Shown: positions 341 to 12,300 of the stretch, in pieces | Layout: every line of letters begins with the position of its first letter | How positions within the stretch are numbered: position 1 is the stretch's first letter | Origin: a virus | Lineage: Duplodnaviria > Caudoviricetes | Virus record (IMG/VR): IMGVR_UViG_3300017766_005792 | Span: 1-43,549 of that record | Length of the DNA stretch: 43,549 nucleotides | Direction: 5' to 3' (one strand) | Notes under the pieces: generated by a model | What the model was told of the DNA's origin: nothing | What the model saw: only the letters and a program-made list of their open reading frames with translations | Database searches by the model: none | Program-made: the position numbers and the translations under genes

Positions 341-803
341 CGTGGAGGCACCCAGCACCGCCCGACCGGGGATCTTTCTATTTCAGCAGGTCTGAGCGAG
401 CAGCGCGAGCGACCGCTAACGAGGTGCAGGGGTATTTTCTACGCGGGCCTCAGAATATCCCATTTCAGCGTGTGGGGGTGGGTGTGTATGAGAACCTGTA
501 GCTCGCCCGCGCCCCAAAAATCCCCCGTTTCACCATATTTATTTTCGCCGGCGGGGCGCCGTAAACGGGCGCCGAAATAATTCCCTGGGCTGGGTCGGGT
601 CTCGTGTGTGGGCTCGGCCTCAGAACTTCGTGTTTCACCGTGTAGGGGTCCTGTGTATGTGTGGCAGGGGGAAACACCAGCTCAGAGCGACATGGGCCAG
701 GGCGCGTTTCAGGCTGTAGGGGCGGGGGCGTTTGCTACCACCCGGGGTCCTGGGGAAGCCCTACGGCGTGCGACGGCACACGCCGCACGCCGCAACGCGG
801 GAA

Positions 804-826
804 GCCCCCACCTTCCGGGTGGGGGC
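804..826 (-). terminator. GC-rich hairpin closing the early operon (weak U-tract)
   Basis: GCCCCCACC-5 nt-GGTGGGGGC just downstream of the stop of 834..1037; only TT follows on the minus strand. Confidence 0.45.
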
Positions 827-833
827 GCTTCGT

Positions 834-1037
834 TCATCTTCTGGTGAGGTTCCGCCAGAAGAGGGAGAACCCAACCCAAGCCAGCGGAACCGTGACCAGC
901 GCCGCGCCGGTCCGGTACCCTCCCAGAATCTGGGAGGACACCTTGTCCACTCCCTCTCCGAGCGACGCACCGAGCGCCGTGAAGAGGGTGATGAAGAGAA
1001 CCCAGAACACCGTCATGACCACTTCGTCTACTTTCAT
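834..1037 (-). CDS. Small membrane protein, two predicted TM helices (67 aa)
   Basis: Two hydrophobic stretches; SD AAGGA within the upstream repeat element. Confidence 0.75.
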   Translation of the reverse strand: MKVDEVVMTVFWVLFITLFTALGASLGEGVDKVSSQILGGYRTGAALVTVPLAWVGFSLFWRNLTRR

Positions 1038-1127
1038 TCTTCGTTTCCTTTCTTCTGGTGGAAGAGCCCACCCTTCAGGACGGGAAGCGTTCCCGCTCTG
1101 AAGGGTGAGCCCCTCTTGCGAGGGGCT
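1038..1127 (-). repeat. Structured intergenic element, copy 1
   Basis: Minus strand: AGCCCCUC-GCAA-GAGGGGCU, CACCCUUCAG..CGGGAA-CGC-UUCCCG..CUGAAGGGUG, GGCUCUUC-CACCA-GAAGA, then SD AAGGA. Confidence 0.9.
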
Positions 1128-1131
1128 GCGT

Positions 1132-1218
1132 TCATCTGAGGAAGAGCCAGAAGGGCCCGAACCAGAGAACGGTTCCGATTGTGATACCCATTGCCAACTC
1201 GCCTACTTCCTTCAACAT
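1132..1218 (-). CDS. 28-aa hydrophobic peptide MLKEVGELAMGITIGTVLWFGPFWLFLR (not in ORF track)
   Basis: Translated by hand; fills the gap between element copies 1 and 2; same SD context (AAGGAAACGAAG-ATG) as the neighbouring gene. Confidence 0.7.
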   Translation of the reverse strand: MLKEVGELAMGITIGTVLWFGPFWLFLR

Positions 1219-1310
1219 CTTCGTTTCCTTTCTTCGTTGGTGGAAGAGCCCACCCTTCAGAGCCTGCCCACTTGCAGACCCTGAAGGGTGAGCCCCTCTT
1301 GCGAGGGGCT
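1219..1310 (-). repeat. Structured intergenic element, copy 2
   Basis: Near-identical flanks to copy 1; the apical stem is replaced by GGUCUGC-AAGUGG-GCAGGCU, which still pairs. Confidence 0.9.
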
Positions 1311-1315
1311 CTCTT

Positions 1316-1513
1316 TCAGAAGGGGAGGTGGTCGGGGCTCCCCTCGACCTCGACCCCCACTTCTTCTTCTGGCCAAATCAGGGACCCGTCGGGCCCCTCG
1401 ATGTACCCGATATCCATGAGCTGGAGTCGAATATCTTGGTTGTACTCCCGCCAAGCGTCTGCATGGGGGTCACCACAGTAGAAGCCCTCTTCGTCGTACT
1501 CGTAATCGTCCAT
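1316..1513 (-). CDS. Very acidic 65-aa protein ending in DHLPF
   Basis: ATG at 1513 after SD AAGGGGAG; 19 D/E versus 2 R and no K. Confidence 0.75.
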   Translation of the reverse strand: MDDYEYDEEGFYCGDPHADAWREYNQDIRLQLMDIGYIEGPDGSLIWPEEEVGVEVEGSPDHLPF

Positions 1514-1615
1514 GTTTTCTCCCCTTGGTTTGGTGGGCCTCACTGTGAGGACCCACCCTTCAGAGCGGGAAGCGTTCCCGCCCTGAAGGGTGGGCCCTCC
1601 CTTGCGGGAGGGCCC
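1514..1615 (-). repeat. Structured intergenic element, copy 3 (divergent)
   Basis: GGGCCCUCCC-GCAA-GGGAGGGCCC, ACCCUUCAG-GGCGGGAA-CGC-UUCCCGCU-CUGAAGGGU, GGGUCCUCA-CAG-UGAGGCCC. Confidence 0.9.
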
Positions 1616-1622
1616 TGCCTTG

Positions 1623-2720
1623 TCACCCTGCCTTAGTGACCCAAGCCGCTTCCCATGCGGCTTCCCCGAGGTTATTCATGGCCTTCAGGTCCCTCACGTT
1701 CAGGACCTGCCATAGAGCCCCTCGGGCAATCCGCATCGCGGCTTGCACCTGCTTCCGTGTCGGACCGTTTCGGTCCGACCCCTCGCTTTCCAGATTCTGA
1801 ATCGCGAGGAGTCGCTTCGGACCGTAGTGTCCGAAGGGGAGCTTTTCCATCTTCCACCGTGTCAGCTTCGCGACGGTCCCGTACTCGACCGGACCGTTTT
1901 CCCGAAGGATGTCGGACAGCGTGTGCTCCGACCACTTCCCGAGGGTCTCGACGAATCCCCGTGCGCCCCGACGCTTCACGTCAGCCCACACGGTCTTCAT
2001 CGCTGTCCCGAAGTACTTGATTCCCTCGGGGGCTGCCTTCCGATCGTTTCGCTGAATCGTCAGCGACTCTCCCGTCAGCCGCCCCTCCGTGTCGTACCGC
2101 CTGAGCGGCACAACCTGAAGCCAGCCGTTCCAGACACAGAGTCGGACGAATCCAGCCACAATCGCGATTCCGCAGTCGTATGGGTTCCACAGACTCGGAC
2201 CGTCGACCTCCCATGGCTTGACCCCGAAGCAGACGTTGCCGTCTTCGTCGAAGACCTTGCCGTCTTCCGGGAGCCAGTCAGGGGCTTCGAAGCCCCATCC
2301 CTCGCGAAGTCGAATCAACTCCGCGTGTTCCGTCGGGAGCAGACCCTGCCCGAGCTTGGGCTCGTCGTACCGGGATGCGTGCCACGCGGCTTTCCCGATG
2401 AAGTCAAGGACCCCGTCTTTGAGAGGCGGCAGGAGCCGTCGGGGTCCGTAGACCCCTGCGGGAAGCGCCGTTTCTCTCAGGTGCCAGCCCTCTCCGCGCT
2501 TGCCAGCGGCAAACGCGTCAAGGACTCGCTCAAGGTCACGAGCCGTGACTTCGGGATTTTCGACTGCCTCCCCGAGCCTATTCAGAAGCACGCGCTTGGA
2601 CTTGGTATCCAAGGCGCGGCTCAGAACTGCCGAGCGGGAAAGCGGGAGGGGCTTCGGACGGCTCACGGTACTCAGACCGTCAGCCGCCGCCTTTGCTGCG
2701 CGTTTCTTGTAGTCAGGCAT
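1623..2720 (-). CDS. Hypothetical protein (365 aa), first gene of the putative early operon
   Basis: Long ORF with natural composition, co-oriented with its neighbours; stop lies 7 nt before element copy 3. No recognised family. Confidence 0.75.
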   Translation of the reverse strand: MPDYKKRAAKAAADGLSTVSRPKPLPLSRSAVLSRALDTKSKRVLLNRLGEAVENPEVTARDLERVLDAFAAGKRGEGWHLRETALPAGVYGPRRLLPPLKDGVLDFIGKAAWHASRYDEPKLGQGLLPTEHAELIRLREGWGFEAPDWLPEDGKVFDEDGNVCFGVKPWEVDGPSLWNPYDCGIAIVAGFVRLCVWNGWLQVVPLRRYDTEGRLTGESLTIQRNDRKAAPEGIKYFGTAMKTVWADVKRRGARGFVETLGKWSEHTLSDILRENGPVEYGTVAKLTRWKMEKLPFGHYGPKRLLAIQNLESEGSDRNGPTRKQVQAAMRIARGALWQVLNVRDLKAMNNLGEAAWEAAWVTKAG

Positions 2721-2800
2721 GTTGTATTCTCATGTTTTGGGTTTGCGCCTCAGGATGGGCCCCCCCTCGCGGAGGGTATGCCATCCCTGGGCTGACCCGA

Positions 2801-2819
2801 TATTCAGTTTTCAAAGAAC
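2801..2819 (-). promoter_or_regulatory. rrn-type boxA antitermination-like sequence GTTCTTTGAAAACTGAATA
   Basis: Matches the extended boxA of many bacterial rRNA leaders and spacers (GTTCTTTGAAAAC...); lies in the leader of the minus-strand operon. Confidence 0.7.
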
Positions 2820-2852
2820 CCCCGGGGTTCCCGCCCCGTTCGATGAAGCAAT

Positions 2853-2879
2853 AGTCTCATGCCCCGACGCCGTTGTCGA
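2853..2879 (-). promoter_or_regulatory. Possible sigma70-type promoter of the early operon
   Basis: TCGACA -35-like hexamer (2874-2879) followed by a weak -10 (GAGACT/GACTAT); position upstream of boxA fits. Confidence 0.3.
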
Positions 2880-2936
2880 ACAAAGTTTGTAGGCCTATGT
2901 CGTTTCGATTGAAACGCCGCAAACCCGCATACAAGC

Positions 2937-2970
2937 TGGCCCAAACCCTGTTGCGACAGGTTTGGGGCCA
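2937..2970. repeat. Imperfect inverted repeat TGGCCCAAACCCTGT-TGCG-ACAGGTTTGGGGCCA
   Basis: Read directly; could be a terminator-like hairpin for upstream minus-strand genes or a protein binding site. Confidence 0.6.
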
Positions 2971-2991
2971 CACTTGGAGCGTCCCACCCAC

Positions 2992-3080
2992 AAAAATTTC
3001 CCCGTATGCACTTTCAGAATGCCCGTGTAATTATTCGGGAAAAATTCCCCGCATGCACTTTCAGGCCGCGTAATTATTCG
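2992..3080. repeat. Imperfect tandem repeat, two units of about 45 bp
   Basis: AAAAATT(T)CCCCG(T/C)ATGCACTTTCAG...CG(T/C)GTAATTATTCG at about 2992-3037 and 3040-3080. Confidence 0.75.
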
Positions 3081-3158
3081 CGCAGCCCGTAAATACTGGG
3101 AAATTAATCGTTTTTCAGGGTGTATTTTTCTATTTTCTGGGGCCTATTTCTCTCGGCC

Positions 3159-4298
3159 TCAAGCCGTGAGCTTCGTCCCGTCAATCACGCATTTTCCGTC
3201 CTGGATCAAATAAACCGCCGGCTGATTATCTTTCCAGAGGACCCCAAAGCCCTGCTGCCAGTCCGGGAATTGTGACCCCGGCACCGTACCGTCTAGCTTG
3301 GCCAGCGTGCCGCAGCCCATCGAAAATACGGTCTTGCCTTGGGTATTTTCGTCGTAGTGGCGGTGGAACGCCAGCTCCAGGCGGTGGGTGTGGCCGAAAA
3401 TCGTCGATAAATGGTAGGCGCCGAGCATTTTTGCCGCCGACTCCCCTCCCTTCCGGCCAATCAAATGTCCGTGCGTGGCGAAAATCCCTGGCGCCACGGG
3501 TACGCGGGCCCCGTAGGGCCCCGCGTACTCGATTTTCAGCTGCTTTAATCCGAGCAACCCTGGTACGTCGGTGGCCCAAAGCAGTTCAGGGGCATTTTTT
3601 GCCAGATAGTCCCGGAGCCTACGCTCATGATTACCCTCTAAAAGTACGATCCGAGAATTTGGGCAATTAATTCGGAGAGTTTTCAGGAAGTTGTGACCCG
3701 CCTTGATAGCCGTCAGCGTCTGGTGGCGGTGCTTTGGCTCCACCTCCCACCGCGAAAGCGCCGGCAGGTCCAACAAATCGCCCAAAATCACGATTTTCTC
3801 GGGTTGGTAGGCCTTGGCCACCGCCAGAACCACCCCGACGGCCCGCTCGTCGTGGATGGTGCGCCAGTCAAACGTAGGCTCGCCGTTTTCCGCCAAGCCA
3901 GTCTCGCAGGTAAACCCGAAATGCACGTCGGGGATGCAGAGCACCTGCATGGCGGTGCCCAAAACCTCCGCCCGCGGCTCGACGGAAATATTTTCGTAGA
4001 CGGGCCCAGGAATTTTCGCGCCCCGGGCCTTCAGGTGCGCCTTTACCTGAAAATTCCCCGTCGACCACGAATTTACGGTGTAGCGCTCGACCTCGTATTT
4101 TTCGGTGTCGACGGCGGCTTCTTTCAGCAAGGCTTCGAGTCTGCGAATTTCAGAGAGCAAGGCCTCGTAGACCTCGCGCGTAAATTCCCCGACCAACCCC
4201 GGGGCTTTTTTCCCCAGCCGCTCCAGACAACGAGCGTAGGACGGGCGGAACGAGAGGTACCGGTGACCGATGGCTTCGCGGAATTGGCTAAGTTTCAT
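3159..4298 (-). CDS. Calcineurin-like metallophosphoesterase with N-terminal extension
   Basis: Motifs PDVH, LGDLLD, EGNHE, THGH, FGHTH and DWQQGF, typical of phage metallophosphoesterases. Confidence 0.9.
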   Translation of the reverse strand: MKLSQFREAIGHRYLSFRPSYARCLERLGKKAPGLVGEFTREVYEALLSEIRRLEALLKEAAVDTEKYEVERYTVNSWSTGNFQVKAHLKARGAKIPGPVYENISVEPRAEVLGTAMQVLCIPDVHFGFTCETGLAENGEPTFDWRTIHDERAVGVVLAVAKAYQPEKIVILGDLLDLPALSRWEVEPKHRHQTLTAIKAGHNFLKTLRINCPNSRIVLLEGNHERRLRDYLAKNAPELLWATDVPGLLGLKQLKIEYAGPYGARVPVAPGIFATHGHLIGRKGGESAAKMLGAYHLSTIFGHTHRLELAFHRHYDENTQGKTVFSMGCGTLAKLDGTVPGSQFPDWQQGFGVLWKDNQPAVYLIQDGKCVIDGTKLTA

Positions 4299-4668: not shown

Positions 4669-5136
4669 TCAGGATGCAGTAGACCTGAGCATCCACGCCG
4701 TTTTTTCGTGCCCTTCGAGCAGGTCCGTGAGGAAATTAGCCGTCCCCTCGTCCCCAGCCTCCTGGGCCACCTTAATTACCTCACGCAGGTTGCGACAGAT
4801 CGACTCGTGGTCCTCCTTGAGGATCCGAACCATCGTCATCGCGTCCGGGACGCCTTCCTGCTCGGGAATCGAGGCCATCTCGAGGAGGTCCCGCATCGAG
4901 CAAGGGGCCATGTCGTCCAGAGCCCGAATACGCTCCGCGATCGCGTCGATCGACTCAGCGAGGGCCTCGTACTGACCCTGAAACATCGCGTGGAGCTGCT
5001 GAAAAAAGGGCCCCTGCACGTTCCAGTGAAAAGCCAGGGTCTTCGTGTAGACCACGAAGGTGTCGGCGAGGCACCGAGCCAGCTCATCAGCCAGGTCACC
5101 CATCGCGTCCGGAGCAATTCCGATTTCAGCGTCCAT
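4669..5136 (-). CDS. dps: Dps family ferritin-like DNA protection protein
   Basis: FHWNVQGPFFQQLH, DAIAERIRAL, GDEGTANFL and HEKTAWML signatures. Confidence 0.95.
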   Translation of the reverse strand: MDAEIGIAPDAMGDLADELARCLADTFVVYTKTLAFHWNVQGPFFQQLHAMFQGQYEALAESIDAIAERIRALDDMAPCSMRDLLEMASIPEQEGVPDAMTMVRILKEDHESICRNLREVIKVAQEAGDEGTANFLTDLLEGHEKTAWMLRSTAS

Positions 5137-9012: not shown

Positions 9013-9040
9013 AGTTTAGTGTTGTTTTTTCAGGATGCAA
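9013..9040 (-). promoter_or_regulatory. sigma70-type promoter TTGCAT-N16-TAAACT
   Basis: Hexamers read directly; lies immediately after a terminator. Confidence 0.6.
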
Positions 9041-9042
9041 GT

Positions 9043-9068
9043 AAAAAAGGGTGCCGCGAGCACCCTTT
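9043..9068 (-). terminator. Intrinsic terminator
   Basis: AAAGGGTGC-5 nt-GCACCC followed by TTTTTT on the minus strand. Confidence 0.8.
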
Positions 9069-9118
9069 CCGAGACGCCTTTCCCTAGTCACCCACCGCTC
9101 GCGGCGATGGGATCGCCC

Positions 9119-9532
9119 TCACTGTGAGGACTTCGGACCCAAACTTTCGGAGGAGGGGTCCGCATTCTCAGTATGCTTCAAGAGCCAGAGCTGGAACAAG
9201 AGACAGCACACCTCGTGAGCAAGGTGTGAGACTCCGGTCTCCGGGTCGTTGGCCTCCCCTTGCAGGCGAGCCACCCGGTGACGGAATCCAGCCGCCTCGT
9301 AGCGCTGCATGGCGTCGGGCACGTGCTTCCAGTTGTCGCGCTCGTACTTCTTCAGGCCGTAGGCCAGGACCTTGACGACTTCTTCGAGCGAGTCCCAGGG
9401 CAGCAGCGTGTAGTCCAGCTTGCCTGCGTCGAACTTGCGACCCTTTACCTCGGGCGGCTGAGGCTCTGCGTAGAACTCCTGCAGTACGGTCCGATAAAGC
9501 TCGGTCAGGTCTGGTCGTCCGTTGTACGTCAT
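9119..9532 (-). CDS. dATP/dGTP diphosphohydrolase domain protein (DUF5664-like)
   Basis: GRKFDAGKLDYTLLP...YGLKKYERDNW...DPETGVSHLAH; ATG at 9532 overlaps the upstream stop. Confidence 0.85.
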   Translation of the reverse strand: MTYNGRPDLTELYRTVLQEFYAEPQPPEVKGRKFDAGKLDYTLLPWDSLEEVVKVLAYGLKKYERDNWKHVPDAMQRYEAAGFRHRVARLQGEANDPETGVSHLAHEVCCLLFQLWLLKHTENADPSSESLGPKSSQ

Positions 9533-10952: not shown

Positions 10953-11497
10953 TTCTTCCTCTTCAGTTTGACTATCACAAGTCGCTTCCTGCGACCTCGA
11001 GGAGTCTCCGTCCACCGCAGGTCGAACACTATCTTCCCATTGAACCGGTCGCGCGGGATCAGATTGGCTAGCGAGTGCTTTTTGTAGCCCGCTGCGTCAG
11101 CTAGCTCGTCTAGGGTCATGCCAAGTTGCGCGACCGCCAAGCACTTCCTGATGGATATTTTCTGCTTCCGGGTGGACGACGGGAGGCCCAAGCGCTGAGC
11201 TTTGTTGCGGACCGTCTTCTCCAAGGCGCCGAACCTATCGGCGATCTCCCTGATGTAGACGATGTCGTTGATACCTGCTTCTCGCAGGGCATCGTGAATG
11301 GCCTCGTGCCACGCCCTTGAGGCAGCGAAGTAGCGCTTCAAGATAGGTGCGTAGGGTTTTCTCCGCCCCCGTTCGAAGAAGTCTCGGTACGTCATGTCCG
11401 CCATCGCGGCCCAGTTATCCAAGCGAATGGGTGGATCGTCCGGGCCCTTCTGGTCGACCCATTCTGAGAGCTCCTGAATTACTTCTTCGAAGGTCAT
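10949..11497 (-). CDS. Putative DNA-binding protein, paralog A (two HTH-like segments)
   Basis: IREIADRFGALEKTVRNKA and GMTLDELADAAGY. Confidence 0.75.
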   Translation of the reverse strand: MTFEEVIQELSEWVDQKGPDDPPIRLDNWAAMADMTYRDFFERGRRKPYAPILKRYFAASRAWHEAIHDALREAGINDIVYIREIADRFGALEKTVRNKAQRLGLPSSTRKQKISIRKCLAVAQLGMTLDELADAAGYKKHSLANLIPRDRFNGKIVFDLRWTETPRGRRKRLVIVKLKRKK

Positions 11498-12300
11498 TTC
11501 TTCTCCAAGAGGCGACCTGTCAGCAGCGCGAGCTCGTGCAGGTTTGAGTATTTGAAGTTGATATGGCCGGAGCGACCGGTCGGTGCGACGCTGACCTCAG
11601 CCCCGAACCGCTCACCTAGCTTGCGTGAGATCAAGTCGAACAGGCTCTTGTACGGGCTCTCGCCTGCCAGCCTGTTCTCCTTGTGCTTCTTCTCTTTCGC
11701 ACCCTTCTTAGCCTGCCGGACCCACGCCTCGGCGTCGAGGGTCCCCATCCCCTTTAGCATCAGGGAGACGAGCTCGTTGCGAAGCGGGCCGTCGTCGATC
11801 GTCAGGCAGATTCGCGCTTGGCGTGCCGTGAGGTCGCCGCTGATGACCAGCCGCTGGTGCTCATCCGAAAGGGTAAGCAGTCGGAAGCTGTTGGAGACGT
11901 AGGGGGCTGACTTGCCTATCAGGTCAGCGATCTGCGACGGCGGGTACTGGTGCTCGTCGCGGAGTCGGCGCAGCGCCAGGGCTTCCTCGATAGGGTTCAG
12001 GTTGGACCGCTGCGCGTTCTCGATGACGGCCACCTCGAAGGCTGAGGTGTCGTCAAAGTCCCTAATGATGACAGGGACGTGCGTCAGCCCAGCCATCTTC
12101 GAGGCGCGCCACCGTCGCTCACCGGCCACGATTTCGAGCTTGGACCTGCGGCGCCTGACGAGAATCGGGAGCAGCACGCCCTTGCTGGCGATGGACTGAG
12201 AGAGGGCCTTGAGCTCCTCCTCGTCGAAGTGCTGCCGTGGCTGCGCCGGGTCTGGGTGCAGGTCATCTACGGGACAGGAGATAAGGATCGGCTCGGACAT
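11494..12300 (-). CDS. parB: ParB/Spo0J family protein
   Basis: QPRQHFDEEEL..L..SI...GVLLPILVR, IVAGERRWRA, ENAQRSNLNPIEEA, HTH and C-terminal dimerisation region. Confidence 0.95.
   Translation of the reverse strand: MSEPILISCPVDDLHPDPAQPRQHFDEEELKALSQSIASKGVLLPILVRRRRSKLEIVAGERRWRASKMAGLTHVPVIIRDFDDTSAFEVAVIENAQRSNLNPIEEALALRRLRDEHQYPPSQIADLIGKSAPYVSNSFRLLTLSDEHQRLVISGDLTARQARICLTIDDGPLRNELVSLMLKGMGTLDAEAWVRQAKKGAKEKKHKENRLAGESPYKSLFDLISRKLGERFGAEVSVAPTGRSGHINFKYSNLHELALLTGRLLEKK

Follow-up and report, generated by a model that had tools for sequence, protein, structure and literature searches.

What is a boxA of the ribosomal RNA type doing at the head of a protein-coding phage transcript? 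The question is raised by a leader on the minus strand of a 43,549-nt stretch of DNA, hereafter the window, which takes up an entire IMG/VR record labelled provirus and makes up the left part (43.5 kb) of an 83,881-nt contig. A PHROGs scan found portal, protease, capsid, sheath and baseplate proteins encoded in the window, and the sheath and baseplate proteins mark it as a contractile-tailed phage (myovirus). A RecA 89% identical to the RecA of a relative, G001, is carried on a contig also of 83,881 nt; the match suggests that the rest of the 83,881-nt contig is phage too, and that the provirus label is doubtful. The elements of the leader, in the order in which they would be transcribed, are as follows.

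2851-2879, minus strand: predicted host sigma70-type promoter (TCGACA at 2879-2874, 17 nt, GACTAT at 2856-2851)
2844, minus strand: predicted transcription start, an A, the seventh base after the -10 hexamer, placed by promoter spacing
2823-2838, minus strand: small 5' hairpin (five G-C pairs) immediately ahead of boxA, where an rrn leader has boxB (minimum-energy and centroid folds)
2816-2830, minus strand: competing inverted repeat GAACCC/GGGTTC that would pair the first four bases of boxA; the best fold when the RNA is cut at 2830
2801-2819, minus strand: boxA with rRNA-type 3' extension, GTTCTTTGAAAACTGAATA (core 2819-2807), an exact match to rRNA boxA
2739-2798, minus strand: long irregular hairpin with a GCGA-capped tip at 2776-2761 (loop from a comparison of folds)
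1623-2720, minus strand: first gene, 365 aa, without a match in PHROGs or Pfam

Positions 2830 to 2801, taken on the minus strand, are GAACCCCGGGGGTTCTTTGAAAACTGAATA, and the rRNA-operon-type boxA that a preliminary description had reported there is present as described. The core is single-copy in the record and GTTCTTTGAAAACTGAATA occurs once in the window. Under a second-order Markov model of the window the expected copy number is 0.0008 for the 13-mer and 6e-8 for the 19-mer, values that are post hoc. The loose core GNTCTTTGAAA is expected 0.09 times under the same kind of model and, with one mismatch allowed, was matched in 36 of 100 shuffles. The loose core alone is weak; we place the weight on the full 19-mer and its position. 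Judged by its letters and their placing, the motif is a real boxA of rRNA type in a T7-like leader arrangement.

The predicted promoter carries a TG two bases before the -10 hexamer GACTAT. It is the only match in the window to a -35 plus extended -10 pattern and is one of 8 window sites that score at least 9 in our own scan, and its consensus score of 8/12, below the bar of the standard scanner, explains why that scanner does not list it. BoxA begins 25 nt behind the predicted start and 31 nt downstream of the predicted promoter on the same strand, and so lies, as supposed, on the transcript side of the start, position 2844 itself being a prediction. Upstream of the promoter, in a gap rich in A/T runs, two imperfect direct repeats (2985-3084, minus strand) stand 47 nt apart around GAAAGTGCAT, a possible protein-binding, origin or packaging site.

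A second contig of 788 nt, from run X1, aligns with positions 2795-2897, the promoter and boxA region, and then continues in different sequence. All of the differences listed, 7 substitutions and 6 letters inserted or deleted, fall at 2825-2867; four changes are in the spacer and none is listed in the -35, the TG or the -10. The alignment is gap-free across boxA, and since three unlisted substitutions must fall in 2795-2824, identity of boxA in this contig is not proven. Inspected by hand, the differences at 2825-2843 make the 5' hairpin longer. The contig may represent a strain variant or a second leader locus, and X1 may itself be the run from which the window derives. A terminal repeat read from contig depths in X1 (about 33-35 to the left of 2897, 24 to the right) was not counted, as contig depth cannot rank the parts.

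The window is present in freshwater DNA runs, and one run from a second study holds seven pieces of it at 99% identity or better; none of the sequencing runs listed is an RNA data set with the stretch. Capsids of the nearest isolates are distant (at most 27.5% identical among the matches listed), and no capsid relative was found in the bacterial genome collection. The first gene has one relative, at 53% identity, and gave no usable hit in Atlas; searched with this gene, viral contigs yielded no relative of the leader and metagenome contigs yielded only the window's own contig. The sequences of the capsid relatives G001 and G002 stop short of the leader region, and the one true relative among 80 loci in a ParB alignment is too short to cover it. 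Pattern searches returned 8 loci for promoter plus boxA, all unrelated, and 2 matches in viral contigs for the long hairpin, both due to chance. Thus no independent relative covering the leader was found among viral and metagenome contigs or the capsid and ParB relatives.

The claim that this form of boxA marks rRNA leaders was borne out in bacterial genomes. The exact 19-mer lies in rRNA leaders or spacers at 64 of 124 genome loci, which come from 6 of the 64 parts of the genome collection, and in 48 of the 74 distinct contexts that remain after repeated contexts are removed. Leaders of 16S and 16S-23S spacers were assigned by rRNA motifs; of 13 such loci checked against Rfam, 11 were confirmed as rRNA, compared with 0 of 7 others. 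Outside rRNA, the 19-mer occurs four times in 300 kb of one Clostridium contig, three of these copies lying within 5 kb (L167-L171), and many streptococcal and related genomes share one common non-rRNA context, likely a mobile element (L100-L107 and similar).

The rRNA loci with the 19-mer include Alphaproteobacteria, Nitrospira, Bdellovibrionales, Acidobacteriota, Mycoplasmatota, Bacillota and more. Because a single 19-mer is shared by so many phyla, it does not point to one host, and the use of rrn leaders for host prediction, recommended earlier, is not supported. Other clues did not single out a host either. The window encodes a Dps/ferritin-like protein (4669-5136) and a full three-domain ParB (11494-12300; PHROGs, Pfam). 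The best matches of Dps, at 36-52%, are spread over several phyla, and ParB is about 35-48% identical everywhere. In the phylum of one genome, G006, which is described below, 1 of 151 genomes has the 18-mer and 2 of 201 have a strong match to Dps.

The window boxA differs from the gammaproteobacterial consensus GYTCTTTAANA, as given in the accessible part of PMC5725501. NusB binds directly to the B. subtilis form, AUGAUCUUUGAAA, which comes after a small 5' hairpin (PMC13753749, excerpt), and in M. xanthus GCTCTTTGAAA is found at rRNA and CRISPR leaders (bioRxiv 10.64898/2026.07.09.737519, excerpt). In rrn leaders the hairpin precedes boxA, the reverse of the order in lambda nut (available text of PMC8632103). 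The rrn leader (boxB-boxA-boxC; NusA, NusB, S10, NusG, SuhB, S4) is like the phage leader in its identical 19-mer and, if the phage's predicted hairpin and promoter hold, in a small hairpin before boxA and in its closeness to a promoter; a strong hairpin in the 30 nt before the 19-mer is nevertheless present in only 4 of 28 rRNA leaders that carry it. Unlike the rrn leader, the phage leader heads a protein-coding transcript, with no rRNA, tRNA or Rfam family in the window, and has neither a nearby E. coli-type boxC nor a leader-trailer stem. Rfam reported nothing at gathering score over the window, with generic hairpin matches below threshold in 600-3200. The boxC query, an octamer of E. coli type, for which other phyla may use another form, had no match with one mismatch allowed 3' of boxA on minus strand 2980-2000.

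Does boxA occur in this position in other phages? The exact 19-mer was found at 94 viral loci (53 distinct), none with an rRNA motif nearby. It lies within an open frame of at least 80 codons in 13 of the 53 distinct contexts, compared with 79% of random positions. A strict promoter stands just upstream in 2 of these contexts and just downstream in 6, indicating that many phage boxA sites are not promoter-proximal. When viral contigs were surveyed for a promoter followed by the boxA core, 80 loci (62 distinct) were found, against 41 (21 distinct) for the reversed core, which served as the orientation control. The G of boxA, which the pattern left unspecified, is present in 35 of the 62 distinct contexts and 1 of the 21 controls, and the 3' extension in 10 and 0, respectively. 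No 16S was seen up to 1.5 kb away in any of the 35 G-bearing contexts, although 2 of them, one resembling a host rRNA leader, end within 60 nt. Five of the 35 precede tRNAs, 14 precede an ORF within 100 nt and 16 have a longer leader. The excess of distinct contexts, 62 vs 21, suggests that promoter-proximal boxA is widespread in phages. Such a core is present in 0 of the five isolate phages with the closest, though distant, capsids. No description of promoter-proximal boxA as a general phage feature was found in the literature searched, a body that includes few subscription journals. One other phage has a Twister-P5 ribozyme on the downstream side of its promoter-boxA leader (L261:653-707).

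The closest known arrangement is that of phage T7. In T7 an exact GCTCTTTAACA stands at 813, which is 63 nt past promoter A3; a long hairpin and then gene 0.3, at 925, follow. The long hairpin is presumably the RNase III site R0.3, an annotation that the T7 record does not carry. Host promoter, boxA, long hairpin and first gene thus come in the same order and at similar distances in the two phages: boxA is 112 nt from gene 0.3 in T7, and in the window boxA lies 25 nt from the predicted start and 99 nt from the first gene. By layout the window leader is T7-like, and the novelty implied by the preliminary description was too high. The T7 early leader (A1-A3), in which boxA is of the host's type and no N protein is involved, also resembles it in having an rRNA-consensus boxA, then short genes. 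The window phage differs from T7 in being contractile-tailed and in having no close isolate. A single promoter is predicted for it, its boxA takes the TTTGAAAA form, double hairpins that are nearly identical stand between its genes in three places, and the proteins scanned include no phage RNA polymerase. The T7 boxA is described as an anti-termination element whose mutation is reported to make Gp2 dispensable (PMC3709561, citing Savalia 2010; excerpt).

BoxA is used without N outside rRNA operons at suhB (PMC5725501, excerpt) and at CRISPR leaders (bioRxiv 10.64898/2026.07.09.737519, excerpt). N-independent use outside rRNA operons is what the suhB, toxin-gene and CRISPR-leader elements would have in common with the window, but they are host loci, and CRISPR arrays are wholly untranslated. 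Lambda nut would share with the window the use by a phage of NusB-S10 through boxA; its order, however, is boxA then boxB, and it requires N, whereas the near hairpin of the window precedes boxA and no N candidate was seen. The earlier remark that no N-like protein is evident holds for the window: families of the N, Q or NusG-like kind were absent from 46 of its proteins compared with PHROGs and 29 with Pfam, and 18 left-arm ORFs include none with at least 5 arginines in 12 residues near the start. This search covers 43.5 kb of the 83.9-kb contig, about 40 kb lying outside. No N protein was found in 31 ORFs of G001.

The folding of the leader was modelled from its predicted 5' end. Alone, the 5' hairpin at 2838-2823 is weak (-9.6 kcal/mol, z -1.47), and the stability of the leader as a whole is unremarkable (z -1.57; 14 of 200 shuffles fold as well). 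The short inverted repeat said to overlap boxA is present at 2830-2816, but in the full leader it loses narrowly to 2838-2823 in both the minimum-energy and the centroid structure; its fold is within about 1 kcal/mol of the best one. Equilibrium models leave the boxA 11-mer 0.46-0.67 unpaired, with its first four bases mostly paired.

The long irregular hairpin, originally placed at 2792-2747, was confirmed and extends to 2798-2739. On the minus strand it is better than 199 of 200 dinucleotide shuffles (z -3.35), and on the plus strand better than 190 of 200 (z -1.89). Its proposed cap, CCCUC-CGC-GAGGG, did not survive: the best fold of the tip is CCCUCC-GCGA-GGGGGG (-11.8 kcal/mol), and no three-base CGC loop occurs among six folds within 4 kcal/mol. 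With a GCGA loop, of the GNRA class, the tip resembles the GCAA-capped short hairpins of the intergenic elements downstream rather than the CGC-capped long ones of elements 1 and 3, to which it had been likened. By analogy with T7, the hairpin is likely a processing or stability element. The features that follow the first gene are these.

1538-1618, minus strand: intergenic element 1, a GCAA-capped short hairpin plus a long hairpin
1316-1513, minus strand: 65-aa acidic ORF, no family in PHROGs or Pfam
1236-1312, minus strand: intergenic element 2, upper stem of different sequence that still pairs
1132-1218, minus strand: 28-aa hydrophobic ORF after an AGGA ribosome-binding motif
1053-1130, minus strand: intergenic element 3
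834-1037, minus strand: 67-aa hydrophobic ORF, no family in PHROGs or Pfam
763-830, minus strand: two further hairpins of other sequence at the end of the gene cluster, without U-tract
590-730, minus strand: candidate Rho loading site, C-rich, G-poor, weakly folded and untranslated

The first-gene start has no clear Shine-Dalgarno motif, and 13 nt before the gene an out-of-frame ATG opens a five-codon frame that stops just inside it (2716-2733, minus strand). Elements 1-3 have stems of at least 18 pairs, the lower part invariant and the upper part variable yet paired. In their alignment 70 of 73 cells are paired and 4 pairs have changed on both sides, a covariation that is not significant with three copies (41 of 500 shuffles as high). 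Their long hairpins could serve as sites for RNase III or for message stability. A U-tract was looked for behind 10 stems and is absent from all (no more than 3 T in the next 8 bases), indicating that the downstream hairpins are not intrinsic terminators, and a standard scan listed no minus-strand terminator between 2800 and 1. Reading through a hairpin-dense operon, which had been proposed as the purpose of boxA, is therefore not its obvious function.

Beyond the cluster, the C-over-G skew is in the 97th-98th percentile at 704 and 665 and at 730 is the seventh highest among the 3,340 windows of the skew scan. The 590-730 stretch folds at only -7 to -15 kcal/mol per 78 nt and contains no start of any ATG ORF of 21 codons or more. 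The sequence from 2844 to 830 is mostly G-rich, and the next ORF after the C-rich stretch is at 183. It is plausible that the C-rich stretch of about 730-590 is a Rho site before this ORF. Roughly 600 nt (183-780) are without a convincing ORF, and a 34-nt repeat is present there in three spaced copies (229-262, 446-479 and 616-649).

The lower stem of the long hairpins, CACCCTTCAG...CTGAAGGGTG (1047-1112, 1243-1295, 1547-1599), matches the core of a REP-like repeat family with 33 copies in G006, a member of the Limisphaerales. Two of the G006 repeats flank a weak Y1_Tnp match (L501:446-480, 1139-1170; E 0.0008, below the cut-off), and the G006 16S leader carries GTTCTTTGAAAAT. The shared part is only 10-13 bases long, and the pattern occurs 36 times across many taxa, so the overlap is no more than a lead on origin or host. 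A tail motif of element 1, CCTCACAGTGAGG (1535-1550), recurs at about 9125-9110 in a hairpin cluster (9040-9130) whose last member, near 9050, is a canonical hairpin with a U-tract.

The explanation that we prefer, and consider probable, is that host NusB-S10 loads at boxA without an N protein and makes the host polymerase Rho-resistant. Binding of NusB-S10 to boxA would set up an rRNA-type elongation complex independent of phage N, in line with what is reported of early transcription in T7. Thus modified, the polymerase would be resistant to Rho and cross the four genes and the untranslated, partly C-rich stretch of about 650 nt. The long hairpins, rather than terminating transcription, would probably divide the message as sites for RNase III or stability. 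Expression of the cluster may be early. On this reading the T7 precedent extends to an unrelated, uncultured myovirus with a non-enterobacterial form of boxA. Outside E. coli, binding of NusB-S10 to boxA has been shown and its purpose left open (PMC13753749); leaders of this kind would be compact protein-coding reporters for the role of the complex there. A bolder extension, which we regard as doubtful, is that N-free capture of the host rRNA transcription complex is no peculiarity of T7 but common among phages across bacterial phyla, and is here switchable. Mutually exclusive 5' hairpins would expose or hide boxA, the complex would drive polymerase through GNRA-plus-long-stem cassettes, and RNase III would cut the transcript into single-gene messages, possibly at the genome end that enters first.

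A different outcome, unlikely in our estimation, is that boxA recruits the Nus complex to repress, in the manner of suhB or lambda nutL. The 365-aa first gene would then be translated less and Rho would more often terminate within it, tying the gene to host Nus levels. The lack of a clear Shine-Dalgarno motif fits this idea, as does the 99 nt from boxA to the ATG, since repression of suhB persisted over 100-nt spacers (PMC5725501, excerpt), and reviews hold that context decides the outcome of boxA (PMC12360218, in the part available). The native suhB gene, however, is repressed from a boxA 6 nt before its ribosome site, according to the same portion of PMC5725501; the first gene of the window is mostly G-rich, and the T7 parallel is described as antitermination (PMC3709561, excerpt).

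Less likely still is mimicry of an rRNA precursor, with boxA in a leader-trailer stem or with a Nus complex that mainly folds, or reads through, the repeated hairpins. The rrn complex has been described as an RNA chaperone (PMC8632103, excerpt), and elements 1-3 change in sequence and keep their pairing. A complement of boxA at -14 kcal/mol or better is present in 16 of 29 rRNA spacers with the 19-mer, and at three further viral loci a near-perfect complement lies 277-557 nt downstream (-19.7 to -23.3 kcal/mol). The best downstream partner of the window boxA, by contrast, scores -12.0 kcal/mol, equal to background (the median of 47 viral loci is -11.9), and lies inside a gene. Duplexes between leader and spacer gave no defined stem, as judged against mononucleotide shuffles only, and promoter-proximal phage boxA sites showed no general enrichment of leader-trailer stems (7 of 32 downstream vs 5 of 32 upstream). 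The hairpins of the window are local and need no long-range folding, they lack U-tracts, and the covariation of elements 1-3 did not stand out from shuffles. With no downstream boxA complement above background and no leader-trailer stem, the claim that the transcript is organised like an rrn precursor is not supported.

Chance or decay is a very unlikely source of the motif. A terminator-like listing by the scanner of 2838-2823 plus GGGGTTCTTT could make boxA the tail of a weak terminator-like hairpin, or a functionless leftover; the loose core is not rare, and boxA is half paired in the models. Only 3 T occur in the 8 bases after that stem, however, and neither the 19/19 identity with rRNA boxA nor the strand- and consensus-specific recurrence behind phage promoters is readily attributed to a relic. 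N proteins are poorly conserved, which counts in favour of the least likely reading, a lambdoid-type nut site with the downstream GNRA-capped hairpin as boxB and an N-like protein from the 40 kb or so of contig beyond the window, but the tip starts 25 nt after the 19-mer atop a long stem, with no boxB stem-loop close behind boxA, the boxA is of full rRNA type, and the arginine-rich and N-family searches yielded no candidate.

True leader-trailer stems do occur in other phages. At L017, L019, L002/L249 and L277 a near-perfect complement of boxA lies 265-557 nt downstream (-19.7 to -27.7 kcal/mol), and the stems at L249 and L277 enclose the first short gene.
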